Shown: positions 1 through 62,976 of the stretch, piece by piece
Layout: each line of letters begins with the position of its first letter
Position numbering within the stretch: the stretch's first letter is position 1
Assembly: GCA_035221665.1 (NCBI GenBank)
Contig: CM069166.1
Span: forward strand, 3,968,001-4,032,000
DNA length: 64,000 nucleotides
Source: Okamejei kenojei
Lineage: Eukaryota
Direction: 5' to 3'
Notes under the pieces: generated by a model
Database searches by the model: none
Seen by the model: the letters and a program-made list of their open reading frames with translations, nothing else
What the model was told of the DNA's origin: nothing
Translations under genes and position numbers: made by a program

Positions 1-250
1 GTAGTGAATGAGGAGGTGACGTTGGAATGTGAGGTCCATAATGTCTATCCAGCTGAGAACTTGACTGTAACATGGTTTCACAATGGTGAAGAACTGAAGT
101 CAGTTACAAAGACGTCAGCGTCCCACGATATCTGGGCAACAACATGGACACCACAAGACACGGGATTGACTGAACTTGCCTGCAGAGCAGATTTTGAGGA
201 TTATCCATTAAATCTAACAAGGAGTGACAACATTTCCATTGAGGTGTACG
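1..250 (+). CDS. ICAM/VCAM-like Ig-superfamily receptor, Ig-domain exon (5' end outside the window)
   Basis: Frame 1 reads VVNEEVTLECEVHNVYPAENLTVTWFHNGEEL...ELACRADF...ISIEVY, an Ig C-W-C pattern with the ICAM-like 'VxPxxNLTVxW' motif. Donor G|GTAAGC at 250/251 is phase 1. Confidence 0.85.
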
Positions 251-5698: not shown

Positions 5699-5973
5699 GT
5701 GAAAAATTGCCATGGGGTATCATCATAATTATAATAGTTGTGGCGTTATTAGTATTAATGCCAATAGCAATAATATGCTATAGGCGGATTGACAGTGCTC
5801 GGAAATCAGGAAAATATAATCTACTGAATCCAATACCCAGCAAAAAACAAGAAATCCCTTATGTGAATGAACCTCTGGATACTATTCATTTGCAAGAAGC
5901 GATTTCAAACGGCAATGACAATAACTCACAGACTGGTCCAAATAATAAAATTTGTATTACACCTGTGAGTTAG
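5699..5973 (+). CDS. ICAM/VCAM-like receptor, terminal exon (TM helix plus cytoplasmic tail)
   Basis: Acceptor TTCCACAG ending at 5698, phase 1. Encodes (S)EKLPWGIIIIIIVVALLVLMPIAIICYRR (TM plus basic stop-transfer), then RKSGKYNL, resembling the ICAM/VCAM juxtamembrane motif. Stop TAG at 5971-5973. Confidence 0.85.
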
Positions 5974-27500: not shown

Positions 27501-29071
27501 AGGAGCAGTAGCGGTGGATGCATTATCGCTAAATTGGATGGGGAAAGATGTTCTTTTATGTTCCCCATTCTGTCTGATAGGGCAGTGTCTGATGAAAATG
27601 TAGCAGGACGCTGCCAGGGGCACTTTGGTGGCCCAAACCGGACTGTCATGGTTCTCATTAATGTTGAGAGTGATGTTTGAACCAGTTATGATGACTCATA
27701 GGTGCAGTAATTTATTGTCGTACAAATTCATCCATGGCATGACAATATGAATTTGGCTATCTGCAGGTTTGACCAGACCATTATAACAGTTTGACGGTCA
27801 AAGAGGTCTATGAATGTTTTAACAATATAACAATTATGTACAAAAAAAATGTTATACCTGCAATTTGGAGAAATAGCATTAAAAAACAATATTTTGTTTT
27901 ATAAGAAATTGGAAGTCTTTTGTAGATAGTAAAAGTTATTTTATCATATTAGATATATGGGAGTTCCTTGTGGATTGCATTTTTTCTCAGCATCTAAGTG
28001 ACAGGGCCAATAATAGGGCTCATAGTGTTTATCGTCCTATTTAGGACAAATTGCTGACCAAGAATTTATCGGGCTCATCCGTAATATCCCGTTATGTAAA
28101 AGAATATATATATTCTGTCCAAAGTTGAAATACAGAAGTTGGGAGGTCAGCATAGTCCTGACTTGCCTTAGGCGAATTCTATCAATGATTCAAAAAATTA
28201 ACATTGAAAGTAATAATGCTCACAGCGCTACTTATTACACATAAAAACCACATAAAGTATCAGTACAAACCGATGGTTCTAGATAGTTACATTCTAGATG
28301 GTTAAAACAGGTTTGAGACTCAGCAGGCGTAGACATTGAGATGTGAAAAATCACTCCATTAGGGAGGTAGATACATCCACAGTAAAGGCACAGGATGGGC
28401 CGCTCGATCAATAATTAGAGGCCTTAGGAGGATGGAAAAGAAATTTTCAAAGTTACGAGGAACCAGTCATGGTGTAAGGGTTGGACACGCAGTGTTGGTT
28501 TCTCTGTGATTGTTGCTTTGTTTATATTATCAATTTATATTATCAATTGATATCTTTGGTTATAAATTTTGCCTTTTGATAGAAGGGGTATTACTTTCAT
28601 TCTTCTATAATGAAAAGATATTACATAAACTGAAGCAATGTTTGAAAAATGTATTATTTACTCACTACTGTGTTTACTGAGCCAGAGTGTCGTATGGAAT
28701 GAGTCTACGACATAAAAACACAGAGCTACAAAATCTTCACGTAGTCACTCACGTGACTCCGAAGTAAAATAGTAAGATTAAACGAGAACTTACCATTTCG
28801 AAGTTTGATCGTTATTTTATGAGGAGTAACTATGAGGGATTACATGCCCTCCACTCCCGACCCTCATAAAATAAATGATCATCTGGTAGTTCTAAATCTA
28901 TGTTGAGCCTTACTATCTTACTCCGGCTATTACGTTCTGTGTTTTTCATGCCGCTGCTTTGAAGTATGCCGATCATGCACCAGGCAGGGCTTCACATAAT
29001 CCCTCATCGTTACTCCTCATAAAATAACGATCAAATTTCGAACTGGTAAGTTCTCATTTAATCTCACTATT
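24521..29071 (+). mobile_element. DIRS1-type tyrosine-recombinase retrotransposon, full length but decayed
   Basis: Inverted termini (24536-24571 vs 28964-28995) and an internal complementary region at 28735-28846 that pairs with both ends. Degenerate RT (ALSNGLSS..RMFTQLLEP, YLDH), RNase H (QTEAS..GW, INYLE, VDNTTAVAYIN) and DLFVSRLN motifs. Confidence 0.85.
26953..27038 (+). pseudogene. U2: 3'-truncated U2 snRNA retrocopy (about nt 1-85)
   Basis: ATAGCTTCT...TATCTGTTCTTATCAGGTTAATATCTGACACGTCCC...GGGAC aligns to the U2 5' end (ATCGCTTCT...TATCTGTTCTTATCAGTTTAATATCTGATACGTCC). No Sm site; the branch-recognition GTAGTA is mutated. Confidence 0.8.
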
Positions 29072-29695
29072 AAAATATAATTTTCTGGAAAGACGATACA
29101 TGTCAACAGGTAAATTGGTTAAAAATGGAGAGGGAAGATTGTTTGCCTTTTAACACAGGCTCGATTCTTCTATCTCTAATACATCTGAATAAATCAACGT
29201 ATGAGCAAAATCTGATAATACACAGTACCCTACGTTTATGGAAACAGTTGAAATTAAGTCTTAAACTGAGAAATTTGTCTCTCCCTCTGCCTATTGCTAA
29301 CAATCCCTCGTTTAAACTGTCTACTTTAGATAAGGTGTTTGTTCAATGAAAAAACCTAGGAATTAATACTGTGGGAAACCTCTATAAGAAGGGGACTCTC
29401 CTCTCTTTTCAAGAACTACAGGAGAAATATCATTTGAAAGCAAGCAATCTTTTTAGATATCTTTAAATCCGAGATTATGTGAAAACATACACAAGACTGT
29501 CCTTTTATGGGTCCAGATACATTAGACGATTGTCTGAATAGACATGCCCACACAAGTAAGTTGATATCTTACATTTATAACGCTCTCTTAAATGTTGATA
29601 CTCCACCTTCTGAGATGTATAGGCGAGCATGGGAAGACGTGTTGGGTTTATCAATTTCAAAAGATATATGGGAAGAAAGCCTACTATACATACAT

Positions 29696-29790
29696 GAGGG
29701 GTCTGAAGAAGGGTTTCGGCCTGAAACGTTGCCTATCTCCTTCGCTCCATAGATGCTGCTGCACCCGCTGAGTTTCTCCAGCATTTTGTG
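29696..29790 (+). mobile_element. 95-bp Penelope terminal fragment with hammerhead core, inserted in the L1
   Basis: TSD TACTATACATACAT (29682-29695, 29791-29804); contains CTGAAGA-A-GGGTT-TC-GGCCT-GAAA-CGTT. Confidence 0.8.
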
Positions 29791-30399
29791 TACTATACAT
29801 ACATTACTGTTCTTTCAATGTCAGGCATTCCCTGATACAATTCAAAATATTGCATAGGCTATACTATTCAAAGACAAAATTGAATAAGATCTTCCCAACT
29901 GTCTCCCCTATCTGTGATAAATGTCTCCTCCATGAAGCTACCTTAACCCATTCCTTTGCATCCTGTATAAAGATACAAAACTTCTGGATGGGAATATTCA
30001 ATATCTTCTCTAAAACACTTAAAATTAAACTGGAATCAGATACAAAACTAATAATTTTAGGAATGTCAGAGGCCTGTTCTAAATTAACGATATTTCAAAG
30101 ACGTTTCCTTGAGAAAATTAGGCTTGTTTTGGCTGATAAAGTAGACCAATTTTCCAAAATATGGTCTCCTTTCACTGAATTTCTTCAACAACAGAATGGT
30201 TGAACACAAATTTAAAACCGATGCTTGGGATGGGGAAGGACAGTGGGGAATACTTCCATTTTTTTTTTCTTTCTCTTTTTTCTTCTTGCACTTCTTTGGT
30301 AGTTCAGGGGTCTTTTCTTCTCTCTCTTTTGCATCTTTTCTTCATTCTTTCCTTTTTTCTATTTTTCTCGATTTATGTATCAATTCCTAACACGATCCT

Positions 30400-31204
30400 A
30401 AAGGATCGTGTTAGGAACCTGGAGCAGCAGCTCGATGACCTCCGTCTGGTCAGGGAGAGTGAGGAGGTCATAGAGAGGAGCTACAGGGAGGCAGTCACTC
30501 CCAGACCACAGGAGGCAGACAAGTGGGTCACGGTTAGGAAGGGCAAGAGGCAGGGGCTAGAGAGTACCCCTGTGACTGTACAACTGGAAAATAGGTACTC
30601 GGGTTTGAGTACAATTGGAGGGGACAGTCTACCTGGGGGCAGCAACAGCGGCCGGGCCTCCAGCACAGAGACCGGCCCTGATGCTCGGAAGGGTAGCAAA
30701 AAGAGGAGGGCAATTGTAATAGGGGACTCTATAGTTAGGGGGTCGGGTGGACGCATTCGGGAAACCCGGATGGTAGTTTGCCTCCCTGGTGCCAGGGTCT
30801 CGCACGTGTCGGAACGTGTCCAAAAGATTCTGAAAAGGGAGGGAGAGGAGCCTGATGTTGTGGTACACATAGGTACCAATGACATAGGCAGAAAAAGAGA
30901 TGAGGTCCTGAAGGGAGAATTTAGGGAGTTGGGGGGAAAGTTAAGGAGAAGGACCAAAAGGGTAACGATTTCAGGATTACTGCCTGTGCCGCGTGACAGT
31001 GAGAGTAGGAATGGAATGAGGTGGAGGACAAATGCATGGCTGAGGGACTGGTGCAGTGGGCAGGGATTCAAGTTTCTTGATCACTGGGACCTCGTTTGGG
31101 GAAGGCATGATCTGTACAAAAAGGACGGGTTGCACTTGAACCCGAGGGGGACCAATATCCTGGCAGGGAGATTTGCAAAGGCTACTGGGGAGACTTTAAA
31201 CTAG
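30400..31204 (+). CDS. CR1 ORF1 (coiled coil plus SGNH/GDSL esterase), 5'-truncated
   Basis: VIGDSIVR, CLPGA, VVVHIGTNDIG and DGLHLN catalytic blocks; the ORF-track N-terminus (30200-30399) is L1 3'UTR read-through. Confidence 0.85.
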
Positions 31205-31250
31205 AAGGCTGGGGGGAGGGACTCTGGTAGAGGGGGCTAGGGGACAGGGT

Positions 31251-34156
31251 GTGGGGCAAGAGGCAGAGAAGGGAAGCACTCGGACCCAAAATGTAGGCGA
31301 GAAAGAGGAAAAAGATAATAGACAGAGAATAAGGGATGGTGGGTTTATAAAATGTGTATATTTTAATGCTAGGAGCATTGTAAGAAAGGTGGATGAACTT
31401 AGAGCCTGGATTGACACCTGGAAATATGATGTTGTGGCAATCAGTGAAACATGGTTGCAGGAGGGCTGTGATTGGAAACTAAATATTCCAGGATTTCGTT
31501 GCTTCAGGTGTGATAGAATTGGAGGGACCAGAGGTGGAGGTGTTGCATTGCTTATCAGAGAGGATATTACAGCAGTGCTTTGGCAGGATAGATTAGATGG
31601 CTCGTCTAGGGAGGCTATTTGGGTGGAACTGAGAAGTGGGAACGGTGTAGCAACACTTTTAGGGGTGTATTATAGACCGCCAAATGGGGAGCGAGAATTG
31701 GAAGAGCAAATATGTAAGGAGATAGCAGATATTAGTAGTAAGCACAAGGTAGTGATTGTGAGAGATTTCAATTTTCCAAAAATAGACTGGGAAACACATT
31801 CTGTAAATGGGCTGGATGGTTTGGAGTTTGTAAAATGTGTGCAGGATAGTTTTTTGCAGCAGTACATAGAGGTATCGACCAGAGAACGGGCAGTGCTGGA
31901 CCTCCTGTTAGGAAATGAGACAGGTCAGGTGACGGAGGTATACGTTGGTGAGTACTTCGGGACCAGTGATCACAATACCATTAGTTTCAATATAATTATG
32001 GAGAGAGTCAGAACTGGACCTAGGGTGGAGATTTTTGATTGGAGAAAGGCTAACTTTGAGGGAATGCGTAAGGATTTAAAAGGAGTGAATTGGGACACTC
32101 TGTTTTATGGGAAGGATGTAGAAGAGAAATGGAGGACATTTAAATGGGAAATTGTAAGAGTACAGAATCTTTATGTCCCTGTTAGGGTGAAAGGAAATAG
32201 TAAAAATTGGAAAGAGCCATGGTTTTCAAGGGAAATTGGACACTTGTTTCGAAAAAAAGAGAGATATCTACAATAATTATAGGAGATATGGAGTAAATGA
32301 GGTGCTAGAGGAGTATAAAGAATGTAAAAATAATCTTAAGAAAGAAATTAGGAAGGCTAAAAGAAGATATGAGGTTGCTTTGGCAAGAAAGGTGAAAGTA
32401 AATCCAAAGGGTTTCTACAGCTATATTAATAGCAAAAGGATAACGAGGGATAAAATTGGACCATTAGAGAGACAGAATGGACAGCTATCTGCAGAGCCAA
32501 AAGAGATGGGGGAGATATTGAACAATTTCTTTTCTTCGGTATTCACCAAGGAGAAGGATATTGAACTCTGTGAGGTAAGGGAAAAAAGTAGAGTAGCTAT
32601 GGAAACTATGAGATTTAAAGAGGAGGAAGTACTGACACTTTTGAAAAATATAAAAGTGGATAAGTCTCCAGGTCCTGACAGGATATTCCCTAGGACATTG
32701 AGGGAAGTTAGTGTAGAAATAGCAGGAGCTATGACAGAAATATTTCAAATGTCATTAGAAACGGGAATAGTGCCGGAGGATTGGCGTACTGCGCATGTTG
32801 TTCCATTGTTTAAAAAGGGTTCAAAGAATAAACCTAGCAATTATAGACCTATTAGTTTGACGTCAGTGGTGGGCAAATTAATGGAAAGGATACTTAGAGA
32901 TAATATATATAAGCATCTGGATAAACAGGGTCTGATCAGGAACAGTCAACATGGATTTGTGCTTGGAAGGTCATGTTTGACAAACCTTCTTGAATTTTTT
33001 GAAGCGGTAACTAGGGAAATTGATGAGCGTAAAGCAGTGGCTGTTGTCTATATGGATTTCAGCAAGGCCTTTGACAAGGTTCCCCATGGAAGGTTGGTTA
33101 AGAAGGTTCAATCTTTGGGTGTTAATGGCGGAGTAGCAAGATGGATTCAACAGTGACTGAATGGGAGATGTCAGAGTAATGGTGGATGGCTGTTTGTCAG
33201 GTTGGAAGCTGGTGACCAGTGGGGTGCCTCAGGGATCTGTGTTGGGTCCACTGTTGTTTGTCATGTACATCAATGATCTGGATGATGGGGTGGAAAATTG
33301 GATAAGTAAGTATGCAGATGATACTAAGATAGGTGGTGTTGTGGATAATGAAGTGGATTTTCAAAGTCTACAGAGAGATTTGGGCCATATGGAAAATTGG
33401 GCTGAAAGATGGCAGATGGAGTTTAATGCTGATAAGTGTGAAGTGCTACATCTTGGCAGGACAAATCAAAATAGGACGTACATGGTAAATGGTAGGGAAT
33501 TGAGGAATGTTGTGGAACAGAGAGATCTAGGAATAACTGTGCATAGTTCCCTGAAGGTGGAATCACATGTAGATGGGGTGGTAAAGAAAGCCTTTGGTGT
33601 GCTGGCCTTTATAAATCAGAGCATTGAATATAGGAGCAGGGAAGTAATGTTAAAATTGTACAAGGCATTGGTGAGACCAATTCTGGGGTATGGTGTACAA
33701 TTTTGGTCGCCTAATTATAGGAAGGATGTCAACAAAATAGAGAGAGAACAGAGGAGATTTACTAGAATGTTGCCTGGGATCCAGCGACTATGTTACAGAG
33801 AAAGGTTGAACAAGTTAGGTCTTTATTCTTTGGAGCGCAGAAGGTTAAGGGGAGACTTGATTGTGGTCTTTAAAATGATGAAAGGGATAGACAGAGTTGA
33901 CGTGGATAAGCTTTTCCCATTAAGGGTAGGGAAGATTCAAACAAGAGGGCATGACATGCGAATTAAGGGACGGAGGTTTAGGGGTAATGTGAGGGAGAGC
34001 TTCTTTACTCAGAGGGTGGTGGCTGTGTGGAATGAGCTTCCAGCAGAAGTGGTGGAGGCAGGATCGATTTTAACATTTAAAAGTAAAGTGGATAGGTATA
34101 TGGACGTGAAGGGAATGGAGGGAATGGAGCAGGTAGATGGGACTAGGGGAAAATAA
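31251..34156 (+). pseudogene. CR1 ORF2 (APE endonuclease plus reverse transcriptase), disrupted
   Basis: YFNARS, ISETW, YYRPP, DFN and SDH (EN); NYRPISL, QHGF, DFSKAFD, GVPQGSVLGP and YADD (RT). Frameshift near 32250; TGA plus frameshift near 33155. Confidence 0.9.
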
Positions 34157-34300: not shown

Positions 34301-34448
34301 NNNNNNNNNNNNNNNNNNNNNNNNNNNNNNNNNNNNNNNNNNNNNNNNNNNNNNNNNNNNNNNNNNNNNNNNNNNNNNNNNNNNNNNNNNNNNNNNNNNN
34401 NNNNNNNNNNNNNNNNNNNNNNNNNNNNNNNNNNNNNNNNNNNNNNNN
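34301..34448. other. Assembly gap (148 N)
   Basis: Run of N. Confidence 1.
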
Positions 34449-39047: not shown

Positions 39048-39243
39048 GGCACCGCAGATGCTGGAAAAATCGAAGGTAGATAAAAATGCTGGAGAAACTC
39101 AGTGTGTGAGGCAGCATCTATGGAGCGAAGGACTAGGTGACGTTTCGGGTCTGAAGAAGGATCTCGACCCGAAACGTCACCTAATCCTTCGCTCCATAGA
39201 TGCTGCCTCACCCGCTGAGTTTCTCCAGCATTTTTATCTACCT
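39048..39243. mobile_element. Young fold-back Penelope-derived element with hammerhead core
   Basis: ~80-bp inverted arms (39072-39151 / 39166-39245); direct repeat TCAAGCGGTTCAAGAA at 39032-39047 and 39244-39259; CTGAAGA...GAAACGTC at 39151-39178. Confidence 0.8.
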
Positions 39244-39931
39244 TCAAGCGGTTCAAGAAACCTATCTATGACTTTTGCAGAGCCTGGATAGTGTGGATGT
39301 GGAGAGGATGTTTCCACTAGTGGGAGAAGTCTAGGATCAGAGGCCATAGCCTCAGAATAAAAGGACGTACCTTTAAAAAGGAGATGAGGAATTTCTTCAG
39401 TCAGTGGGTGGTGAAACTGCGAAATTCATTACTGTGGAGGGTAAGTCGATGGATATTTCTAAGGAGGAGAATGACAGATTCTCGATTCGTACGGGTGTCA
39501 GGGGTTATGAGAAGAAGGCAGGAGAATGGAGTTGAGAGGGTGATAGATCAGCAAAGATTGATTGGCGGAGTAGACTTGATGGGTCCAATTCTGCTCCTAG
39601 ACCTTATGAAGGTATGAACTATGATGGGGAACAGCGGGTGGCGGGGGGGTTGTTACTGTGACGGGAGACTAGGTAGGGAGGGTGTTACAGTGATGGGAAT
39701 GTGGGAGGTTTACTATGATGAGAGGCAGGAGTAGAGGAGTGGGGTACTGTGAAGGAAGGAACTGCCGATGATGTTTTTTTATGATCGGAATGAAGGCGAG
39801 GGTGAGAAGGGTGGGGAGTCACACCCATTGCGCTGATTATCAGAGCCAGTGCGTATTTACCACTGATGGTAAGGGCAGTCTACAGCAAAGATACGAGTAT
39901 CTTTGGTCTACAGTCTTTTTTTTGGAACTCT

Positions 39932-39979
39932 GGGGCTTTCTCAGCATTTAGTTTCCGGGAAATCAGAGAGATTGTTTAC
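39932..39979 (+). promoter_or_regulatory. Candidate cytokine-inducible promoter: kB-like, palindromic GAS and FOX sites
   Basis: GGGGCTTTCT (39932-39941), TTTCCGGGAAA (39952-39962) and TGTTTAC (39973-39979) in CpG-enriched unique DNA ~100 bp upstream of a leader-like ATG. Confidence 0.6.
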
Positions 39980-40056
39980 ATCAATTGCGAGTGTGTGGGC
40001 TGCGGGAGCGCTGTGTTCATTTGGACGGGTGGTGATCAGAGAGGCAGCGGGCGCCG

Positions 40057-40135
40057 ATGATCGCAGTCATGGTCTCTACACTCACTTCAAGCGGGAGATA
40101 CCTTCACCTCATCTTGTTCCTATTCACGTTAACAA
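40057..40135 (+). CDS. Probable exon 1 (signal peptide) of a second secreted or membrane gene, possibly an ICAM paralogue
   Basis: MIAVMVSTLTSSGRYLHLILFLFTLT (alternative ATG at 40069), with a basic residue then a hydrophobic core. Donor A|GTTAGT is phase 1; read-through meets a stop at once. Confidence 0.6.
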
Positions 40136-40199
40136 GTTAGTGCAATCCTCGTATCAATCGCGTTTCTCCCATGGCATGTCCCATTTTTATTTCAAAGCC

Positions 40200-42690
40200 A
40201 AACCGCTTGGAGGTAGTTTTAATCTGCAATTTGAGAAGGAGAACGTTAAATCGGAAGTGTCAGTGATGCAGTTTAACAAAGGGGACGATGAAGGCATGAG
40301 AGGGGAGCTGGCCTAAGTAGACTGGAAAGGTATCCTAGCAGGAATGACGGTGGAACAGCAATGGCAGGAATTTCTGGGCATAATCCGGAAGACGCAGGAT
40401 CATTTCATTCCAAAAAGGAAGAAAGATTCTAAGGGGAGTAGGAGGCAACCATGGCTGACAAGAGAAGTTGGGGATAGAATAAAACTAAAAGAAAAGATGT
40501 ATAACACAGCAAAGAGTAGCCGGAAACCAGAGGATTGGGAAACTTTCATAAGACAACAGAAGGAAACAAAATGGGCAATACGGGCTGAAAAGATGAATAC
40601 GAGGGGAAGCTGGCCAGGAATATAAAGGACAGTAAAAGCTTCTTTAGATATGTTAAGGGGAAAAGAGTAGCAAAGTCAAATGTGGGTCACTTGAAGGCAG
40701 ACACGGGTGAAATTATGTTAACGAAGAAACTGCAGATGCTGGAGAATTGAGGGTTACACAAAAAGCTGGAGAAACTCAGCGGGTGCAGCAGCATCTAAGG
40801 AGCGAAGGAGATAGGCGACGTTTCGGTCGAACACAGACCCTTCTTTCAGACTCTGGTCAGGGATCCAAGGAAACAGAGATATAGACGGTGATGTGGAGAG
40901 ATAAAGAACAATGAATGAAAGCAATATAGCAAAAAAGTATCGATGATAAAGGGAACAAGTCCATTGTAAGCTGTTTTTGTGGTGTGAAAATGAGAAGCTA
41001 GAGCGACTAGGGTGGGGGAGGGAGATAGAGATAGAGGGAATGCCAGGGCCCCATGGCTTGAGACACAGGTGGGAATGGGAGGAGACAGCCGGTTAACAGA
41101 ATTGCAAGAAAATATCAAATGTTTCAGCACAAAGGCACAGCAGACTCCCAAAGCGGAATAGGTTCCTCCAAATATGCGGTGTTGCTCAACTCTGGCCATG
41201 GAGGAACCCAGGACCGAGAGGTAGGATACCGGCATGGGAGGGGAGTTGAGGCTGAGGGACCGGGAGCGCGTCGGGTTGGTTTTTGCGGACCGAGAGGTGG
41301 GAACGTGTTACGGCGAAAACGATCGAGCCCTCCGCTTGTTCTCAAAACCGATATAATCATCTGGCATCTGAGCAGGGATGCAGTATAATGTAAGGTTGGA
41401 CGCACGGAGTCATAGAGCCAACCCTAAAATTAAGTTCACAGTAACATTCAACCCATTTATGTCGTCAAGCCAACAAATGGGGTTTAAATGCATTTCTCTT
41501 CTCCGTTAAAAACAATACACTCACTTCACATGCAGAGTTGTCCGTCCGGCGCTCAGCCCATCGCGCCGCCAAGCGGACATATGACTGGTGCAGATCAGCG
41601 GGCTGCCGCGCGGCGGGTGCGGCCACTGCGCACTTGCACGGTTGCCCCGGCGGGTCTGCCACCCATGCGCACTTGGTGCAAGACCAGACGGCTGCCGGCG
41701 GGCGGGTGCGGCACATGCGCAGGTGCAAGTTGCCGCGTTCGGGTCTGCACCTGCGACACTGGGCCAGGGTGGCGGGGGAGGCCCGGTGCGATGGACGGCA
41801 GCCGCGAGCGCGGATGCCTACGGCTGCTGGCACAGACACAATGCCGCTGATCGCCCAAAGCGGCAAGCCGCGCCCGCCCGGCCTCTGCGCGGCCAACCCC
41901 CCCCCCGAGCTGCCGGGCTGCGCAACCGGTGGCACACTGCGCGCCCAGGTTCACCCGGGAGGAACACCGAGCGCGCGGAGTTCCGTAACAGTTAGGTTTG
42001 AGACTGCCGAACACCGTAAAAAGGTTTTATTTCCGCCGGACAAAATAACGGGGGACAATAAATCATTAACATTCGGGACCACTTGAAGTGCAGGCTGACC
42101 TCTGCGAAGACCGGGAAGGACTTCTATGGGTCCCTGAAAGGAGTGGAGGGGGGGGTGACAAGGGACAAGGTGCGCAATTTATTGCGTGCAAGGGAAAGTG
42201 CGCCCGGGGAAGGAGTAGAGCGGAGGGGAGGGAAAGAATTGAGACAAGCGGAGCGTCACGGAGGGAGCGGAATTCTTTGCAGGAAGGCAGACGGGGGGAG
42301 ATGAGGAAGACAGGGGCGGTGGAGGGGTCAGGACGTTGGAGGTGGCGAAACTGGCGGAGGGACTATCAGTTGTATTTGTTTTCCGGCTGGTGCGGGGTGA
42401 AAGGTGAGGACCAGGGGACTCTGCCCTGTTTGCGAGCGAATAGGTGAATGGGGAGAGAGGGCAGTGTTTGCGGGGTATGGAGGAGACCCTGGTGCGAGCC
42501 TCATCAATAAGTCGGGGGGAGGGGAATCCCCACACTTTCTCTGAAGAATGAGGCCATTTGTTCTAGATGACCTGTGTGAAACCACCTCATCCTGGAGCGA
42601 TGCGGCGTAGACGGGTGAAATTATTATGGGCAACAAGGAAATGCAGAAGAGTTGAATAGGTTCTTCGGATCTGTCTTCACTAGGGCCGAA
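40200..42690 (+). mobile_element. CR1 ORF2 internal fragment interrupted by Penelope
   Basis: TVEQQWQEFLGII...QPWLTREV linker; continues (GEIIMGNKE..) after the Penelope insertion. Confidence 0.7.
40717..42610 (-). mobile_element. Penelope-like element (5'-truncated), duplication copy 1
   Basis: TSD ACGGGTGAAATTAT (40703-40716, 42611-42624); same as 53585-54662 but indel-rich and with an unexplained insert at ~41400-42080. Confidence 0.75.
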
Positions 42691-43339
42691 TGGCCTCCTC
42701 CTGCACCTATTTTCTATGTTTCAATGTTTCTATGAGCTATTAAGCGGAGCTCTATGATCAGCGGGGGGATTTCCTGTCATTTATTAATGTCCAAACAAAA
42801 AGTAGGAATGTTACAAAATTTTGAGATTTTAAAAATCAAGCATGTAATTTATCCCATCAGATAAAGCATAAAAAGAAGTTTAATTTGACACCTAATTCAC
42901 TTTCATATCTTCAATATTAAAAAAGATGGCCATTTTCATGCTCGGAAATTAGCATCTTGTTCCCTATTGGTTTTTCATTGACAACACAAAAGCTGTGATC
43001 GAGGACAGTCAGAAGCCCCATCAAAACTTTCTTAAACACACAATGAAGAGAACAGAATTAAAAATTTCATCATTATAGTATAGATTGAAGCATTCTGAAA
43101 CAAATATGAAACATCTTACTTGGATGACCTGAAATTAAAGCATATAATTAGTTAGTTACTTAATTGTAGCTAATTACAAAATTGACCATTGTGATGGAAA
43201 AAAGTAATAAACACCCATGACTGCCTTGAAAATCCCAAAATGTGATATTTTCAATAGATCAAACTTTAATATTATTAGTATTATATGCTGTAAAGTCCGT
43301 AAAAAGATAGTGTAAAAAAGCGAAATTACAATTTCTACT

Positions 43340-46300
43340 ACAATAGAACAAGTCTCGAGGTAGAGAAGATCCTCTACCCCACATCCCCCTCCCCTAGCGA
43401 AAGAGAAGGGAAGGGGAGAGAGGGGGGGAGGGGTGGCAAGAGGGGGAGAGGGCCCTTCCTCTCTGTCCCCGACTATCTTCCCCCCTTCCCTCTCTTACAC
43501 ACCTCTATTTCTGACCCGTATCCTCTCTTCATTCCCCCTCCCCCTCTGCCCCCTCCCTCTCTAGGCGAGGAAATCCCCACCCCACCTTCCCTCTCCTCCT
43601 CTTTCCCCCATCCTCTTTCCCCCATTCTTCTATCTCCCCCCCCATCTCTCCCCCTCCCTCATCCCCTGCCCTCCCACCCCTCCTAACCCTCCTCCGCATG
43701 CCATCCACCATAACAACCTCCACTCTCCCCCTCCCCCCCTCGCATCCCACTTTTCACATTCCGCCCCCTGTGTTTGGGGGGACGGACCCTCGGTCTAGTA
43801 ACATTATCTATCCTATCTATCTATTTTTAAAACTGTGCGTGTGTGTGTCATTATTTTCGCCTTTAAACGTATCTCTATTTTGCGAAAACCGGAGGCATTA
43901 ACGGGAAGATTTTTTAACGTATTTCTGTAGGGATTTACCTTAATGCAAGTCAGAAGCTTTTATCGCTGACGTCACAATGCCCCACAATGCGCCACACCAA
44001 TCGAGGCCCATCAGACTCCCGCCCCCCACCCCCCAACCCCCCACCCCCCGCTGTGGGCTAAAGCATTCTTTATTTCTTTTTTACATAGCATTAAATTTTT
44101 TTTGTGTCTCTGTGTCCCATCTCCGTGTCCCGCACCCCCCCCCCCCCCGCCCCCCCCCGGGGCCTGGCCTCTCCGATTAACAACATCACTGCTGTTTTGC
44201 ATGCGTGTATAAGAATCTCTTCCCCCGTCTTTAAAAAGCGTAGAAAGAACGAGCAGGTTCTTCAGATCCCGAGGACACCTGGTTATTTTGTGAAGTCACG
44301 CTCTTCCCGCAGCTGGACTCCCACGCCTGCTCGCCACTCCACCAAGAAAATCAGCCCCCCCCCCCCTCCGTTCTTCAAGATGTATTTATTTATATTTATT
44401 TGTCTATTGTTCCCGAAACCAGATAAAGACCATAAATAGGAACTAAAATGAATCAACAAACAAAATCGAAATAGTCAAACAATTGGACATTCCAGGGCAT
44501 ATCTTTGGTACAAAGCAAAGCACTGAAAGGTATAAAGATAAGAATTTTAAAATGAGCAACAGACTTTTTCTTTTACCAAGCTCGAAATGGAAAGAAATAA
44601 CATAACATGTGCACCTTCCACACCTTTACAATGGCTCATACTTAAAGGAGTTAATTAATAACAATATATTATTCACCTTTAGCAATAACATTGCTTAGCT
44701 ATAATCACCCAATAATGATACACATATTCAATACGTAATATAATGTAACACATAATAGACCATGACTCCACGGTTATACAAACATACATTGCGAAGCTGC
44801 CGTTTGAATATTCTATAATTTCAGAAGACGAACTTGCCAAGAATTGAGCAATATATCGCTCTACTTAACACCATACATTAATAACACTCTGCTTATTTGA
44901 AAACCAGTATTTAGTCACGTTACAACAAGAAAGGGGAATATAAGAGCAAACACAACACAATCCATATCACAGAACACAGTCTCTGCTGGCAGTAAAAACG
45001 AAGGAATACAATTTTGTGAAAGTCATACACTCAGATGTGTGATATGGGTAATAATATACAATAAATAATCTACAATAGCTAATTATTCATTTGAAATACA
45101 ATTTAACCGTAGCACGTAACCCACATACAACAATTTTTAGAGATGCATACAGACATATATCATCAATACATACAAACTGATAAACACATACAGTAAAATG
45201 TATGAAGTAACACAAAAAAAAACATATACAATAAATAATAAATAAATAAACATTAATAAACACTCTAGCGCCCCCTGTTTGTCAACCATCCCCATCATCC
45301 CTGTACCTTGTGAAAAAAAGTTTTTTGTATGTCATTTTGAACTGTTCATGTTTGGGACATTGCTTTAACTCCACATTCAAACTGTTCCACAATCCCACTC
45401 CACAGACCGAAATACAAAAAGTTTTTTTCTAGTCGTGCGGACTCTTTGTACCATTAAAATTAAATATTCGCTATCATTGAATAATTTTTGTATATTTCCA
45501 GGTAAGTTTTTATTTTTTGGCCCTAAACATTATCTGTCCGCCTGTTTTCAAATGCAACCAAATCTGCCTAATTTTAAAAATAATTTTGAGTTTGTAAGAA
45601 TAATGAATTAGTGTGATCCAGATACCTGATACAATGCGTATTGCTCTCTTTTTTGCAGAAATAGTTAATGAATCATAGCGAACTTTTATAGTTATTGCCC
45701 CAGACACATCTGCACACAGTAATTTAAGTAGGGTAAGATTAGTGCGAACAGTAGAGAATGCGACGAGTGATTTGTGATCCCAGAACCTGATTACAACTTT
45801 GTGTTAATAAACAGAAATGCTTTTTGACAATTTGGATTGTACTTATGTTTAATGTGTGATTTCCAGCTGATTTCTATCATCCATTATAACCCAAAGGAGA
45901 AATTTATGCTTTCATGAACTCTTTCAACTTCAACCCCATTTATCTTTATACCTTCGCTCACACGTGTATTTGTTCAGCAATTACCAAATAACATTATTTT
46001 GCGGTTTTGCTCAAGTTTAATGAAATTTTGTTCCTAGACAAACCACATGTTTTCAGTTTGCCCTGACATTCCTTTTGTTATTTTGTCCAGTCTCCGTTAG
46101 TTTTTAAAATTCTCCCCAGAACAAAAAATATGTTTGTGTCGCATCTGCGAACAAGACAATCCTCAAGGCATTGGAAAACACATTACAAATGTTCGATTTA
46201 ATATATACATGATGAATAGTTTTTTTGGACCCAACACTGAGACCCCTGGAGGGACACCACAAGCAATTGTCCCAAAATGTAAACTGAGCTGCCCAGCTTC

Positions 46301-49300
46301 ACAAACTGTTGCGTGTTACTTAAATAGCTTTTTATCCAATCCAGTACTAAGACCATCTGATGCCATACCTTTCTAATTTTTTAAAATTGCAGAAAAAACG
46401 AGCGTTCTGCAGATCGGGAGGTCACCGGTGGTCACAGTCAGTCACCTGAGGCCACCGACTTCTTTCTGAATCCTCTCCTTCTCCTCCACCCCCAATGGTA
46501 GAACATGGCGGCCGACAGCGGCCGTTAAGTCGCGCGGGAACACGCGATGAGAAGGTGGCCCTCGCGGCCATGACTCCCTCTGGGAAACCAGTCCCCGGCG
46601 CAGCGAGTCAAGTCACGCCCCTCCCTCCCTCGCGCTGCCAGTCGCGCGCCGCTCAATGCCTTTGATAAAAAACCTTGCGACCCCCCCCCACTCTCTCTCC
46701 CCTCTCATCTCTCCTCTCTCCTCCCTCGCCCCCCTCGCTCTCCCTCTCCCCCCCCCTCGCTCTCCCCTCTCTCCCCCTCGCTCTCTCTCTCCCCCCCTCG
46801 CTCTCTCTCTCCCCCTCGCTCTCTCTCTCCCCCACGCCCTCTCTCTCCCCTCTCTCCCCCCACCTCGCCCTCTCTCTCCCCCACCTCTCTCTCCCCTCCC
46901 CCCACTTTCTCTCACCTCCTCCCTCTCTCTCCCCCCCCTCTCTCCTCCCCTCTCCCCCTCTCCACCCCCCCCCAACCCCTCTCTCCCCCCCTCCCCCTCT
47001 CATCCACCCCACCCCCCCTCCCCCTCCTCATCCCCCCCCTCCTCCCCTCATCCCCCCCCCTCAAGTACCCCACCCCCCTCCCACCTCTCATCCCCCCTCC
47101 CCCTCTCATCCCCCCTCCCCCTCTCATCCCCCCTCCCCCCTCTCATCCCCCTTTCCCTTTTCCCCTCCTCTCATCCCCCCCCCCCCTCTCTCCCCACCCT
47201 TCCCCCTCACCCTCCCTATTCCCCCCTCTCCCAACATTCCCTCCCCCTCCCACTTCTCTCTCTGCCCTCACTCCTCTACCCCCCCCCCCCCCCCACCTCT
47301 CTAACGCGCCAGCGAGTTGGGGGCGTATGCGTCAGTAGATAGGACGGATTATGGGGTAAAAGGAGCAAATTAATAATTAATAATAAAATAACAAAGGGGG
47401 TAGTTAAAATGTGTGTGCGGGGGGCTAGTTAGTGTGAGTGTGTGTGTGGGTGGTTAATGTGTTTGACGCCGCATGCCCATGCCCCCCCCCACCCCCCCCC
47501 CCCCCCCCCGCAACCTAATGTTGGAGGAACAGAACCCAACGAGTCTGCACTTGGTCTTGTATATATTTAAAACTCTCGTGTTGGTTTTGTCCGGGTACTA
47601 TTCGCTAATATTCGTTTTAAGACGTTTGTGAAATCTCCTCCTCCAAAATGTGCAAAAATGGAATAACATATCCTTACCCTGCCTTTTCAGTAAAAAACAT
47701 TAAACATTTCAAAATGTTAAAAAAATCTAACTGCTTCTCACCCCATAGTACGTTGATGAACATTCCATCGTGTTAATGTTTTTTTCACAATGCCCAATGT
47801 TCACAGATGTCCAATCGGAATGGATCTCATTTACATATTCCTTTGCTCCAGCCGTAGCCCCGCCCCCCGCCGCCTGAAGTTTGCCAGCACATTCCATTGT
47901 GTGATGTCACAATTCCATCCCTCACAGATGGTCAATCGCAACGGATCTCATTTACATATGCCCCAGCTCCGCCCTCCCGCCGCCTGTGTCGAAGCGCGTG
48001 ATCACGTGATCAACATAACGGCCGTTGCGACTCTCTCCGCCCACAACCCGCCCCAAAACACAGGTTTTATAAGCTTGGTAAATTATCCCCTCTCTAAACC
48101 CCCTCTCATACTACTCTCCTCCTCCTGCTCTATCCCCCCCCCTCCTCTCTCCACCACCCCTTCTCTCCTCCCCCCCCCGCCCCCCTTCTCTTTACCCACC
48201 TCCCCCCATCCTCTCCTCTCACCGAGAACAGAAAATACCATGTTCAGGACAGAATAATATCGACAGAAAACAATATTTCTTCACCTTTCTTTGTTATTGG
48301 GGAACCTGAAGAAAGACAGATAGGGTCGGCCACATTGTCGATTACAGCAATTTATAGCAGAACAGTGAGCTGTAGATGTAGTGGACCCATGACGGTATCA
48401 AGGCAGTCCTTCAAAATGCGGAGAACAATCGACCCCCGCACGCGCGCGTTCTCATCCGCCGCCCGACTTGGCGGGAAGAGGCAGCGCGGGGTAAACCGGC
48501 GGCAGCCAATGGGATGCATGGGGGTGGGGGGGAAGGTGACAGCACGCGAGGCCCCGCCTCCCCAAGCATGCGCTCTGGCGGCAGCTGTCGTCGCTCCCCC
48601 GCATGCCTCCAGCTTTCGACGCAGGTTAACCTCCTGCCTACCCAACTCTCCAGCTGTTAACATCCCACCTCCTCCCCCGCCGTAGACGTCCGTTAAACTC
48701 CCACCGACCCAACAATCAACGCTCGTACGCTCACGGCCTTCAGCTGTTGACACTCACTTCCCGCCCAACCACCCCGCCTTCACCCTCTCAAATGTCAGCG
48801 CACCATCAATCGCCGTACCGCCACCCATCCCCAGCTGTGTCTGGCCCGTTAACCGCACAGTCGTCGAACTTTTTGCCGACCCTTCTCGCCCGTACACTCA
48901 ATCAATTGTTTCAATGCCCATAAACCGCCCGATCCCCCCCACCCCCCCCCTTACTGTCGACGCTTGGAGGCCGTCCAACTGTTTGACTCCTCGCTCATTC
49001 ACGGTACCCCCAATAGTTGACTATCGCTCCTGGGTGGCCCGAAACCAACTGTCAACACCCGTTCCCACCCAAAACACCCCTCTCCCTCTTCTCCCCTCTC
49101 ACCTCTCCTCCCTCTCTCCGTCCGCCCTCTCTCTTCTCTCCCCCCTCCCCCCCCCCCCTCTTCTCCCCCCCTTTCCCCCCCCTCTCCCTCTCACCTTTCA
49201 ATCCTCTTTCCTCCTCCCCTCCTCCCCACCCCGTCTCTCCCTCTCCTCCCTCTCTCCGGCCCACCCCTCTCTCCCCCCCCTCCTCTCCCTCTCACCCTTT

Positions 49301-52012
49301 CTCATCCCCTCTCCCCACCCCACCCGTCTCCCCTCCCCCTCCCCGTGTGTGTGGGGGTGGTTAGGGTGTGAGGCCGAATGCCGCCCCCACGCCCCTCAAC
49401 TGTGCATTGGGGGAACCCGTTTATTTCCCCCCCCCCCCCAGCTGTTAATTCCCGCTTAATCCGCAGCTGTTGACCCCATTAAGTCCAGCTGTTGACGCTA
49501 AGCCACATCTGCAGCCGATCCGCTCTCCCGCAACATGAGCATCCTCAGGCTCCACACCCCGGTGTGTCGACATTATATAACCTTGTGGCTATAAACAGTC
49601 CATGTATATATAACAAACACCCTTTAATTATTCCCTGTAGAAATACCAGAATGTTCCATTTTATAATTCTTTTCTCAATGCACCTGTTAACCTTATTGCT
49701 AAGTTCAAGTGTATTGTTTATAGACAATAGGTGCAGGAGTAGGCCATTCAGCACTTTGAGCCAGCATCGCCATTCAATGTGATTCATGCTGATCATCATA
49801 CCAATCCTCTATATTTATAAAATTTCTGATCTTGGGTTATGTGTGTATTTATGCAATGTTTCGTGTGCGTATTCCCCGTTTGTTACATCCTGTATTTTTT
49901 CCAGGTACTAATTTCTTTACTCTTTAAATTTACCGAATCAATTAAAATCTCTATCTTTCCTGAAAGCCTACTGTTTCCATCTACAAGTACAGAGGAAACT
50001 ACAACAGCTTCAGCACCACCACATCAGTTTCCCAACATCAACGACAGTAAAACAACTAATGGCAGCAAAAGTGCATCTACACAACAGAAGCTACAAACCA
50101 CCTTCAGTGAGGACCACTATGCACCACTTACAAACACCTACACTGGTGAGTCCGGTATGCAAGAGTAATGCAAAATCAAATTATATTCCTTACACATCCA
50201 GTGAGAATAATGTTAAAATGGATTGGTCATGTGTGTTCCATGCATATACTGTTGGCCTATCTTCTGTCAAAAAAACTACAGGTTTTTGTTTTCCAAACTC
50301 TTTGGTCCCTCTCTAGCCACTCCCTTGCAGTTGAAGCTATGCGTGAGTGGATATGGGACGGGGATGGGTAAAAGGAGCGAATGAATAACATTAAATATAA
50401 TATCAAGGGGGGTGGTTAGTGTGCGTGTGAAACCGCAGCACCCCCTCCCCCAAATGCACGTAGGGGAAACAGACCCAACGGGTCAGCACTTGGTCTAGTA
50501 AATATTTAATATTTAATAAACTCTCGTGTTGGATTGTCCGGGTTCTATTTCGCGAATATTCGTTTCAGGCGTTTGTGAATCACCTCCTCCGAAATTTGCA
50601 AAAACTGGACAATTTTTACATATTCCCGGGGGGTTTTTCCACCTCCACTTAATGTTTGAAAATTATTCATCCTTTCCCTGCTTTTTCGGTAAAAAATTTC
50701 AAAATGTTAAAAAAAAATCAAACTGCTTCTCAACCATAGAACGTTGATGAACGTTCCATCGTGTGATATCACAATGCCCAATGCTCACAGATGTCCAATC
50801 GGAATGGATCTCATTTACATATGCCTATGCTCCAGCCCCAGCCACGCCCCCCCCCCCGATGTTGCAGCACGTACCCAACCAATCATTGTGTGATGTCACA
50901 ATGCCATCCCTCACAGATGGGCAATCGCAATGGATCTCATTTACATAAGCCTTTGCTCGAGCCTCAGCCCCGCCCCCCGCCGCCTGTGTCGAAGCGCGTG
51001 ATCACGTGATCAACGTAATAACGGCACGTTGAGATTCCTCACCGCCCACAACCCGCCCCAAAACATAGGTTTTTTAAACATATAAGTATCCCCTCTCTAC
51101 ACCCACCCTATCTACTCAATCCTCCTACTCTACCCCCTCTCTTCTCTCCAACCCCACTTCTCTCCCCCCCGCTCTCGCTCTCTCAACCCTCTCTCTCCCT
51201 CTCCCTCTCTGCCCTCCTCTCACCCTCTCCCCTCTCCGTCTCCCCCTCGCCCCTTTCCCCACGTGTGTGTGGGGGTGGTTAGTGTGCGTGTGACGCCGAA
51301 TGCCGCCCCCCCCCGCAACCGCGCATTGAGGGAATCCGTTATTTCCAGCTGTTGATGCCCGCTATTTTCCAGCTTATTGATGCCCGCTATTTCCCCAGCT
51401 GTTGATGCCCGTTATTCCAGCTGGTTGATGCCAGTTTCACCCGCCCCCAACCATCCAATGTGATCATGGCTGATCATCCCCATTCAGTACCAATCTCTAT
51501 ACTTATAAAACTCTTGGATGTGTGTGTATTTGTGCAATGTTTTCGTGTGCGTTTTTTCCCTGTTTGTTACTTACCTCCCGTTTTTTTTTTCTGGTACTAA
51601 ATTTCTTACAATTTTAAAAGTTTGGAGTCATTTAATCTTTAAATTTACCTGAATCAAAAATCTCTACCTTTCCAGAAACCACTATTCCATCTAACAGGTT
51701 CAGAGTAGGCAACTACAACAGCTTCAAGCACCACATCGGTTCCCCATACAACGACAAAAATAGAAACAACTAAGGGCAGCAACAACAGAAGCTACCACCA
51801 CCTCACGATCACACCACTTACACCCACTGGTGAGTCCGGTATGCAAGTGTAATGCAAAATAAAATATATTCCTTATAAATACAGTGAATAAGAATCATTA
51901 CAGTAGAAACAAGTTAACATGGATTGGCCATGTGTGTTTTCCATGGCATATACTGTTGGCCTATCTTCTGTCAAACACACCACAGACTTTGTTTCCAAAT
52001 TCTTTGGTCCCC
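43340..52012 (+). mobile_element. Non-autonomous Helitron tandem array, copy 1 (error-rich)
   Basis: 3' ends at ~43798 (CTAG), ~47559 (CTTG) and ~50498 (hairpin plus CTAG); same layout as copy 2. Confidence 0.6.
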
Positions 52013-52747
52013 CTTGGTAGAGCTAATAGGACTTGTTGTTTCAATCTCTGTAATAAGTCGGCACTCTGTGCTATATTGCAGTGGGATTGGAGTGGTTGAA
52101 AGGTAGGGTAGGTACGTCATCGGGGTCCATCAGGTTGGGCACTCTCTCCTTCTTTGAGGTTTCACTGATAAGCCCACAACATCTCCAGAGGGCTCAACGG
52201 TGATACCTGTGTCCCAGTTACACCCCCCTCAATTCCATTCATACCCTCCTGTATTCAATCTTGCAGCCCCAATTGTTGTTTGCTTCTCCTTTTGATCCAG
52301 ATCCAATTGCTGTTTTTTCCTCCTTCCCGCAGAATTTGATAATGATTTGATTGCTTGTTGCACCCCCATTTTCTTTCATAGCCCGGTACATAGATGTAAA
52401 CAACAAATCCACCCCTGCATGCCCCACTTCAACAGGGAAAAGCTTGGTCTTCCAGCCATTCAGGGAACCTTTCAGTTACCAGTTCAGAGTACTCATTTGT
52501 TTTTTATTTTCCTCTCATAAGCTTTTTTCAACACCATCTTCCCATGGAACTGTCAATTCCACAACATATTCCAACTTGGCTGTTGTGGCCCCACAGACCA
52601 ATGTCTGGCCGGAGTGTTGTAACCACAATGTCTGGGGGAAACACAAGCCTTTTTTCTAAGTAACTGCAGATCTGGAGAATCGAGTTACACAAAAAGCTGG
52701 AGAAACTCAGCGGTGCAGTCCCAGCAGGCTAAGAGCGAAGGATAACG

Positions 52748-53584: not shown

Positions 53585-54662
53585 TAGACGGTGATGTAGG
53601 AGAGATAAAGAACAACGAGATATAGACGGTGATGTGGAGAGATAAAGAACAATGAATGAAAGATATGCAAAAAAGTATCGAGTGATAAAGGGAACAAGCC
53701 ATTGTAAGCTGTTTGTGGTGTGAAAATGAGAAGCTAGTGCGACTAGGGTGGGGGAGGGAGTTAGAGATAGAGGGAATGCCAGGGCCCGAGGGCTGAGGGA
53801 GAAGTGGGGACGGGAGGAGACAGCAGGGGTTAACAGAATTGAGAAAATTCAATGTTTCAAGCCCAAAGGATGCAGACTCCCCAAGCGGAATATGAGGTGC
53901 TGTTCCTCCAACTTGCGGTGTTTGCTCACTCTGGCCATGGAGGAGGGCCCCCAGGACCGAGAGGTCGGATACGGAATGTGGGGAGGGGGATTGAAGTGCT
54001 GAAGCGACCGGGAGGTCGGGTTGGAGTTTTTTGCGGACCGAGCGGCAAAGGTGTTCGGCTAAACGATCGCCAAGCCTCCGCTTGGTCTCACCGCCCCACC
54101 CCCCCCCTCAACGTTATAGATCATCTGGCATCTGGAGCAGCGGATGCAGTAGAGGAGGTTGGAGGAGGTGCAGGTGAACCCTCTGTCGGACCTGGAAGGA
54201 CTGCTTTGGGTCCCTGAAAGGATGGAGGGGGAGGTGAAGGGACAATTGGTTGCATTTCTTGCGGTTGCAAGGGAAAGTGCCCGGGAAGGAGTAGAGGCGG
54301 AGGGGAGGGAAGAATTGACAATGGAGTCACTGGAGGGAGCGTCCTTTGCGGAAGGCAGAGACGGGGGAGAATGGGAAAGATGAGGGTGGCGGTGAGAGGG
54401 GTCCACGTTGGAGGTGGCGAAACTGGCGGAGGACTATCTGTTGTATTTGCCGGCTGGTGGGGTGAAAGGTGAGGACCAGGGGGACTCTGCCCTGTTTGCG
54501 AGTGGGGGAATGGGGAGAGAGGGCAGTGTTGCGGGGTATGGAGGAGACCCTGGTGCGAGCCTCATCAATAGTGGGGGAGGGGAATCCCCATTCTCTGAAG
54601 AATGAGGCCATTTGTGATGACCTGGTGTGAAACACCTCATCCTGGGAGCAGATGCGGCGTAG
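53585..54662 (-). mobile_element. Penelope-like element fragment (RT C-terminus, linker, GIY-YIG), copy 2
   Basis: FHTRSSQMASFFREWGFP...RVPLVLTFHP...FRHLQR and FTCTSSNLLYCIRCSRCQMIY motifs. Confidence 0.85.
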
Positions 54663-57843: not shown

Positions 57844-57921
57844 TTTTAAAATGCGCAGAAAAAACGAGCGTTCTGCAGATCGGGAGGTCACCGGTGGTCA
57901 CAGCAGGTCACAGCCAGTCAC

Positions 57922-58828: not shown

Positions 58829-58863
<35 letters not shown>

Positions 58864-61232: not shown

Positions 61233-61391
61233 AAACCACTGTTCCATCTACAAGTACAGAGGAAACTACAACAGCTTCAAGCACCACATCAGTTCCCACA
61301 TCAACGACAGTAGAAACAACTAAGGGCAGCAAAAGTGCATCTACAACAGAAGCTACAACCACCTTCAGGACCACACCACTTACACCCACTG
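61233..61391 (+). CDS. Ser/Thr-rich mucin-type exon (phase 1-1, 159 nt) inside a Helitron
   Basis: Acceptor CTATCTTTCCAG and donor G|GTGAGT; TTVPSTSTEETTTASSTTSVPTSTTVETTKGSKSASTTEATTTFRTTPLTPT with no stops. Garbled copy at ~49963-50145. Confidence 0.6.
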
Positions 61392-62829: not shown

Positions 62830-62976
62830 AAACCACTATTCCATCTACAGGTTCAGAGGCAACTACAACAGCTTCAAGCACCACATCGGTTCCCATATCA
62901 ACGACAATAGAAACAACTAAGGGCAGCACAACAGAAGCTACCACCACCTTCACGATCACACCACTTACACCCACTG
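62830..62976 (+). CDS. Second Ser/Thr-rich mucin-type exon (phase 1-1, 147 nt) inside a Helitron
   Basis: Acceptor CTACCTTTCCAG and donor G|GTGAGT; TTIPSTGSEATTTASSTTSVPISTTIETTKGSTTEATTTFTITPLTPT, differing from the first by an in-frame 12-nt indel plus substitutions. Frameshifted copy at 51676-51829. Confidence 0.6.

Follow-up and report, generated by a model that had tools for sequence, protein, structure and literature searches.

Does a short open reading frame behind a STAT-type palindrome in the genome of the skate Okamejei kenojei open a second, tandem ICAM-like gene? The stretch of DNA analyzed here, 64,000 nucleotides in full and referred to below as the window, was initially annotated as carrying, near 40 kb, a signal-peptide-like exon under ICAM1-style STAT and NF-kB control that might date to the jawed-vertebrate ancestor. 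The reading favored here, with a probability of roughly 0.65, is that a second tandem skate ICAM-like gene begins at this point, that it would be STAT-inducible, and that its transcript would run through mucin cassettes to ICAM domains beyond the window. The features around the candidate first exon are the following.

39780..40213, no strand: non-repetitive island of ~430 bp, putative promoter plus leader exon, limits approximate, flanked by repeats
39932..39941, plus strand: kB-like 10-mer GGGGCTTTCT, one mismatch to the strict consensus, weak
39952..39962, no strand: GAS palindrome TTTCCGGGAAA, STAT1-optimal form, -117 to -107 from the ATG at 40069
39973..39979, plus strand: TGTTTAC, forkhead-like by motif match, 10 bp downstream of the GAS
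40057..40059, plus strand: in-frame upstream ATG, weak start context with C at -3, unlikely to be the main start
40069..40135, plus strand: coding part of the putative leader exon, 22 codons plus 1 nt, MVSTLTSSGRYLHLILFLFTLT, by homology to skate ICAM-like leaders
40136..40141, plus strand: predicted phase-1 splice donor GTTAGT, fitting the leader/domain-1 junction of relatives

Judged by homology, the segment 40069-40135 is almost certainly a real leader exon. The encoded peptide, MVSTLTSSGRYLHLILFLFTLT, comprises the n- and h-regions of a signal peptide, with hydropathy climbing to 2.3-2.7 in its last windows. It is identical at 20 of 22 positions to six skate proteins (P0003 and its five cluster mates P0005, P0009, P0012, P0014, and P0015, from Leucoraja, Amblyraja, and Logan) and at 16 of 22 to the Rhinoraja protein P0178. 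When the leader was compared with 201 N-termini, the six skate proteins reached a local score of 103 and Rhinoraja 72, and the remaining 194 scored 37 or less, with a median of 15. A tblastn search with five family proteins recovered it at an E value of 3e-7 as the sole leader match within the 64-kb window.

The boundaries of the exon are consistent with this assignment. An open reading frame of 22 to 26 codons ending at A|GTTAGT had been proposed, and it is present: in-frame ATGs lie at 40057 and 40069, and the exon end at 40135, in phase 1, leaves 26 or 22 whole codons. Because all seven skate relatives with the leader begin at the equivalent Met, the start was corrected to the ATG at 40069, which also has a better context than that at 40057; the exon stands in its 22-codon form, and the longer 26-codon form was dropped. 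The donor after 40135 is the best consensus match (7/9) among the eight GT sites in 40075-40215, and reading through it meets a stop one codon on. In the relatives, a single Thr stands between the leader and domain 1, which is what a leader exon with a final A in phase 1, such as that ending at 40135, would give. Furthermore, contigs of ~2 kb encode the leader continuous with domain 1 in the Logan proteins P0003, P0012, and P0015, an arrangement suggestive of spliced transcripts in these relatives. Exon and donor are supported here through homology, in line with the proposed phase-1 leader exon of an ICAM-like gene. Three read runs from the same species, two of which are probably DNA, were mapped to 39620-40330; they gave no coverage of the leader and 0 joints. 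A 147-aa open reading frame that overlaps the leader in another frame (39873-40316) was rejected; it matches nothing in Pfam and extends into a LINE.

The family behind this leader was placed through P0003, which carries it. The ICAM_N profile (PF03921) matches P0003 at 28.1 bits, against a cut-off of 21; its best solved relatives are human ICAM-5, ICAM-1, and ICAM-2 (E values of 1.6e-16 to 2.3e-12); and its domain-1 Cys pairs and Glu align with those of ICAM-1, the Glu of ICAM domain 1 being the integrin-binding residue. VCAM-1 identity was rejected, given an E value of 4.8e-6 against ~1e-16 for ICAM-5 and ICAM-1. A quick, midpoint-rooted tree with SH-aLRT support only was built from domain 1-2 stretches of 139 of 157 proteins, with 21 near-duplicate isoforms omitted; the stretch taken from a multi-repeat protein may differ from the N-terminal one. 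All 17 named cartilaginous-fish rows fall into one 24-row clade (SH-aLRT 99), within which the skates form a 7-row subclade (100); Callorhinchus is one of the 7 further rows. This clade is drawn beside a teleost VCAM-1 group (support 87) and not with the tetrapod ICAMs, the deep branching being weak, and marsupial ICAM1 (P0076) lies outside it. An ICAM1 orthologue was accordingly rejected as the identity of the skate genes: the kinship to ICAM1 suggested at the outset is not one of one-to-one orthologues, and by this placement the skate genes are a lineage-specific ICAM-like expansion rather than ICAM1 itself.

The ICAM-like family and its leader are already part of the automatic annotations of other skates. 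The RefSeq models of Leucoraja (XP_055520211.1 and XP_055520215.1) and Amblyraja (XP_032906714.1) share with the window the leader at 20/22, the phase-1 junction, and a tandem cluster, and Rhinoraja P0178 shares the leader at 16/22 and the phase-1 junction. Two of the models are longer: in P0005 (Amblyraja XP_032906714.1) and P0001 (Mobula), a four-domain unit is repeated two to three times, so that they represent either long ICAM-like proteins or fused neighboring genes. The end of P0005 reads into the same intron sequence that follows position 250 of the window, from 251 on.

That position belongs to another gene, here called gene 1, the last three exons of which lie at the window start.

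1..250, plus strand: Ig domain 3 exon of gene 1, cut by the window start; PF21146 above cut-off; 77/82 to Amblyraja P0005
2909..3193, plus strand: Ig domain 4 exon of gene 1, phase 1-1
5699..5973, plus strand: transmembrane and tail exon of gene 1 with the stop codon; 62/90 to P0003

A database search with Ig domain 4 returned four skate and ray proteins, P0003 among them, and the type I membrane anchor with its tail is present both in gene 1 and in the relatives. The leader lies 34 kb downstream of the gene 1 stop (5973) on the same strand, which makes a tandem paralogue likely. In Leucoraja and in Amblyraja, several ICAM-like models share one contig, indicating that tandem arrays are normal in these skates. 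Compared with the Leucoraja and Amblyraja proteins, Ig domain 4 of gene 1 matches at 69-72 of 94 positions, versus 72-77 of 82 for Ig domain 3, and the tail is also more diverged, as would be expected of an older paralogue with partial homogenization. Gene 1 has a mosaic look, with Ig domain 3 at 94% to Amblyraja, Ig domain 4 at 77%, and the tail lower, a pattern that hints at gene conversion among tandem copies. The end of gene 1 at 5973 on the leader's strand and the clusters in two skates leave the tandem ICAM-like paralogue of the initial annotation as the most likely arrangement, and very probably the leader belongs to a gene separate from gene 1. The Ig exons expected downstream were not recovered: tblastn with five family proteins found no Ig exon between 6 and 64 kb, no Ig, transmembrane, or tail exon of the second gene lies within the window after 40135, and the exon-like pieces that do follow the leader are mucin repeats.

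The same arrangement could arise from a single gene in a mis-ordered assembly, in which gene 1 would begin with the leader and the mucin exons, the contigs flanking the N gap at 34301-34448 having been swapped. This gap lies between gene 1 and the leader and leaves room for mis-ordering; it is one of two N gaps in the window (lengths 148 and 144), the window contains only one 3' half and one 5' half, and the block at 42-52.7 kb bears a raw-read error signature (see below). Nevertheless, a tandem array would likewise present a 3' half and then a 5' half, such arrays occur in Leucoraja and Amblyraja, and the sized gaps would suggest linked scaffolding; a swap is very unlikely.

Turning from the separate paralogue to its control, the island at 39780..40213 is free of self-matches in the window, and high-copy reads cover 39746-39777 and the sequence from 40214 on. 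Within it, GGGGCTTTCT (39932-39941) and TTTCCGGGAAA (39952-39962) are separated by 10 bp, exactly as first described. The optimal STAT1 site is given as TTCC(C/G)GGAA in PMC5737217. The palindrome TTTCCGGGAAA matches this optimal sequence near the gene start and is the only such site in the 64 kb, so that the earlier claim of a GAS palindrome holds, the site being a perfect STAT1 match close upstream of the leader. Across the window as a whole, such sites are not enriched: TTCCNGGAA occurs once versus 1.87 expected, and the loose GAS TTCNNNGAA occurs 19 times versus 22.5 expected. For the 290 bp upstream of the leader, a window model puts the chance of a STAT1-optimal site at 0.0034 and a local model at 0.0018, values that are partly post hoc because the spot was initially chosen for the motif; for a loose GAS in a 290-bp stretch the chance is 0.09. 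The palindrome matters only because it lies 107 bp upstream of an independently verified leader. On this basis it is probably functional, and the predicted STAT site would likely make the gene interferon-inducible. Some 0.7 kb upstream of the GAS, a head-to-head pair of tRNA-type SINE-like repeats forms a 174-bp near-palindrome (39072-39245).

The adjacent kB-like site did not withstand the same scrutiny. The strict kB consensus is GGGRNNYYCC, which GGGGCTTTCT fails at the last base; it is not among the 17 strict matches of the window, a total that is itself below chance. The window has 203 sites with one mismatch; 13% of its positions have the start of such a site within 40 bp, and 57-69% of simulated 290-bp stretches contain one. 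The kB-like site is at chance level, its function is doubtful, and the proposal that it serves as a regulatory partner beside the GAS is not upheld. Repeats contain or adjoin three strict kB matches (42521-42531, 42765-42774, and 43569-43578) at 2.4-3.4 kb from the start of the first intron, two of which are duplicated at 54579 and 54817. CpG islands are defined by a GC content of >50%, an observed/expected ratio of >0.6, and a length of at least 200 bp. The CpG enrichment noted initially is present (11 CpG over 210 bp, observed/expected ratio of 0.84, GC content of 50.5%) but mild, an equal level being reached by 11-15% of windows of the same size. Apart from TGTTTAC at 39973..39979, which we take to be a forkhead-like motif, a search of the ~430-bp island for TATA, C/EBP, AP-1, and ISRE motifs found none.

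Does this layout resemble that of human ICAM1? In the human gene, the IFN-gamma element falls between -116 and -36 relative to the translation start, a kB site is placed at -187/-178 (PMC10215618), the STAT site spans 11 bp at -76 to -66 (PMC4074809), maximal ICAM-1 transcription requires STAT1 and NF-kB (PMC3670280), and a STAT1/STAT3 element close to the start is accompanied by NF-kB/STAT1 cooperation (PMC10215618 and PMC3670280). Gene clustering and a STAT element near the start are common to the human and skate genes, and the Cys pairs and Glu in domain 1 of a skate relative align with those of human ICAM-1. The two differ in that the human kB site stands beside a C/EBP site, far from the STAT site, whereas the skate one-mismatch 10-mer is 10 bp from the GAS in an island that has neither a C/EBP nor a TATA motif; human ICAM1 also has no mucin, whereas mucin-like exons are present in the skate window. 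An ICAM1-like STAT/NF-kB layout is not supported, with the human kB site at -187/-178 and STAT site at -76/-66 against a skate pair 10 bp apart. The human STAT element is presumably identical to the skate 11-mer TTTCCGGGAAA, and we take the human figures combined to place it at approximately -116 to -106 from the ATG. If that position is right, the skate GAS (-117) would be within 1 bp of the human STAT site, which is suggestive; there is no known mechanical reason for an equal distance between GAS and ATG in skate and human. Common descent of the two sites is conceivable, though it stays tentative.

It is also possible, with about the same modest likelihood, that the leader is real and the motifs are due to chance or convergence, the palindrome being unused or independent of the human ICAM1 element. 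A single TTCCNGGAA in 64 kb agrees with expectation, and the kB-like site is at chance level, as this would have it. Against it stand the probability of 0.002-0.003 for an optimal site within 290 bp of a verified ICAM-type leader and the agreement of -117 with -116, where the human IFN-gamma response region has its upstream end according to PMC10215618.

A tblastn search after 40135 detected four Thr-rich segments, M1 to M4, matching 61-residue repeats that precede domain 1 in the Leucoraja proteins P0004 and P0013.

49963..50145, plus strand: M1, error-laden, neither acceptor nor frame intact, likely an uncorrected duplicate of M3
51676..51829, plus strand: M2, frameshifted, likely an uncorrected duplicate of M4
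61233..61391, plus strand: M3, 159 nt, phase 1-1, AG/GT, open frame, Ser/Thr 32/52; 40/52 to a P0013 repeat
62830..62976, plus strand: M4, 147 nt, phase 1-1, AG/GT, open frame, Ser/Thr 28/48; 36/48 to P0013

M3 and M4 are 67-70% identical to the P0013 repeats over 61 residues (E values of 1e-17 to 5e-20). The four segments lie in a tandem duplicate of ~11 kb, M1 and M2 in the first copy (40876-52661) and M3 and M4 in the second (53617-63760). Over four stretches of the alignment of 42-52.7 kb with 54-63.8 kb, 135 versus 29 insertion events were counted, along with 5 transitions versus 31 transversions; an older paralogous control gave 22 versus 9 events, and a second aligner showed the same direction of insertion bias. 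The pattern is typical of an uncorrected long read, and the first copy probably either arose as an artefact of assembly or was left unpolished. The breaks in M1 and M2 look like sequencing error, and given this raw-read error pattern the true number of mucin exons may be two.

Mobile elements occupy much of the surrounding sequence. The AG-preceded segments at 52.3 and 63.4-63.96 kb were discarded as exon candidates. Their minus strand resembles the endonuclease end of a non-LTR retrotransposon, presumably with a restriction-like, HERO/R2-like endonuclease motif (52300-52660 and 63400-64000); the one frame tested has no Pfam match. This retrotransposon end is inside the presumed intron after M4. 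Upstream of the leader, 30179-34156 is a near full-length CR1/L2-type LINE, probably young, whose few long frames encode an esterase ORF1, an endonuclease, and a reverse transcriptase. An L1-like retrotransposon (23260-24520 and 29070-30200, with an RVT_1 match at 23354) is apparently split by ~4.5 kb that may hold a further mobile element.

Splicing of M3 and M4 after the leader is less certain than the leader itself. All exons of the family are in phase 1, so any phase 1-1 exon can follow the leader in frame. The Leucoraja locus LOC129714544 (XP_055520209.1, "zonadhesin-like," and XP_055520210.1, "uncharacterized") encodes Thr-rich 61-residue repeats like M3 and M4, followed by ICAM-type domains and a transmembrane segment; its models lack a leader, beginning instead at an internal Met, and the repeat is 8 residues longer at the front than M3 and M4. 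The difference between two Leucoraja isoforms amounts to exactly one 61-residue repeat. A screen of 165 proteins found mucin before domain 1 only in P0004 and P0013, which come from a single Leucoraja locus and are automatic RefSeq predictions that have no leader; a search with their mucin-domain 1 region yielded no further mucin-bearing protein, and a mucin exon alone gave 0 matches among 802 candidates, a weak test with a low-complexity query. Directly upstream of M3 and M4, the first eight residues of the Leucoraja repeat can still be recognized, the Leucoraja acceptor position reads TG here, and the first AG follows 24 nt downstream, after a pyrimidine tract; a 24-nt acceptor shift must therefore be assumed. 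At 61208-61232 and 62805-62829, sequence that is coding in Leucoraja appears here as that pyrimidine tract. Between M3 and M4, there are 3 synonymous and 8 nonsynonymous codon differences, that is, no purifying selection. Their single indel is 12 nt, and none of five indels in the flanking introns is a multiple of 3. Taken together, splicing of the mucin exons after the leader is slightly favored, and the existence of a mucin-tipped ICAM-type protein is close to an even bet.

An ordinary ICAM-like paralogue, in which the leader would be joined to a domain 1 beyond the window and the Thr-rich segments would be skipped, rare, or decaying cassettes, is rather unlikely. It is favored by the seven leader-bearing skate proteins (P0003, P0005, P0009, P0012, P0014, P0015, and P0178), all of which, RefSeq models and P0178 included, go directly from leader to domain 1 where the window has mucin exons next, and by the absence of purifying selection between M3 and M4, a Leucoraja-type acceptor that is not AG here, and searches that gave no Logan protein with mucin. 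Conversely, the open frames of M3 and M4, their AG/GT borders, their identities of 40/52 and 36/48, and the Leucoraja isoforms that differ by one repeat count against this reading. Still less probable, and indeed highly unlikely, is a pseudogene remnant consisting of a duplicated promoter and leader with no working gene downstream. No Ig exon follows within 24 kb and M1 and M2 are broken, as would be expected of a remnant; yet the leader differs from its closest relatives by two conservative changes, its frame is intact, its donor is good, the breaks in M1 and M2 look like sequencing error, and M3 and M4 are intact.

If the second gene is indeed STAT-inducible and mucin-bearing, IFN-gamma or IL-6-type signals would bring STAT1/STAT3 dimers to the palindrome 107 bp before the start codon and turn the gene on, with doubtful help of NF-kB from the neighboring 10-mer. 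By homology, the leader exon supplies the n- and h-regions of the signal peptide and ends in phase 1. Joining of the leader to M3 and M4 and then to domain 1 would place an O-glycosylated rod at the membrane-distal tip of an ICAM-type integrin ligand, as in P0004 and P0013, whereas skipping of the mucin exons would produce the ordinary leader-domain 1 form of the relatives. Since the signal cleavage site of the relatives likely lies in the domain-1 exon and not in the leader exon, the mucin form would need, and presumably use, a new one. More speculatively, the mucin tip would most likely carry selectin-binding glycans for rolling, ahead of an LFA-1-type binding domain; alternatively, it might shield domain 1.

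Two known layouts invite comparison. MAdCAM-1 carries mucin between its Ig domains and the membrane and binds both integrin and selectin, and it combines ICAM/VCAM-type Ig domains and mucin in one chain, as proposed for the skate protein. However, the MAdCAM-1 mucin is on the membrane side of the Ig domains, whereas the skate mucin is N-terminal (before domain 1 in P0004 and P0013, after the leader in the window), and domain 1 of the skate relatives has the ICAM-type Glu, unlike MAdCAM-1. In N-terminal mucins of the CD45 and CD34 type, the leader is followed by Ser/Thr-rich, alternatively spliced exons, which resembles the skate layout, but no ICAM-type Ig domains come after them. The fullest version of the proposal, an interferon-inducible, mucin-tipped skate ICAM that would bind both selectin and integrin like MAdCAM but in reversed domain order, with a mucin length set by alternative splicing and a STAT site inherited from the jawed-vertebrate ancestor at an unchanged distance from the start codon, is unlikely to be correct in all its parts.

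A literature search limited to titles and the beginnings of abstracts, with few subscription papers, returned nothing on a skate ICAM-like family, promoter element, or mucin-tipped layout. The leader absent from a mislabelled skate gene model is likely provided by the window, which also points to an ICAM layout with mucin at the tip that was found in 2 of the 165 proteins screened. The leukocyte integrin alphaL, the partner of ICAM-1, is reported to appear with the cartilaginous fish (PMC8359198). A perfect STAT site at the start of an elasmobranch ICAM-like gene bears on whether leukocyte adhesion induced by cytokines goes back as far as adaptive immunity.
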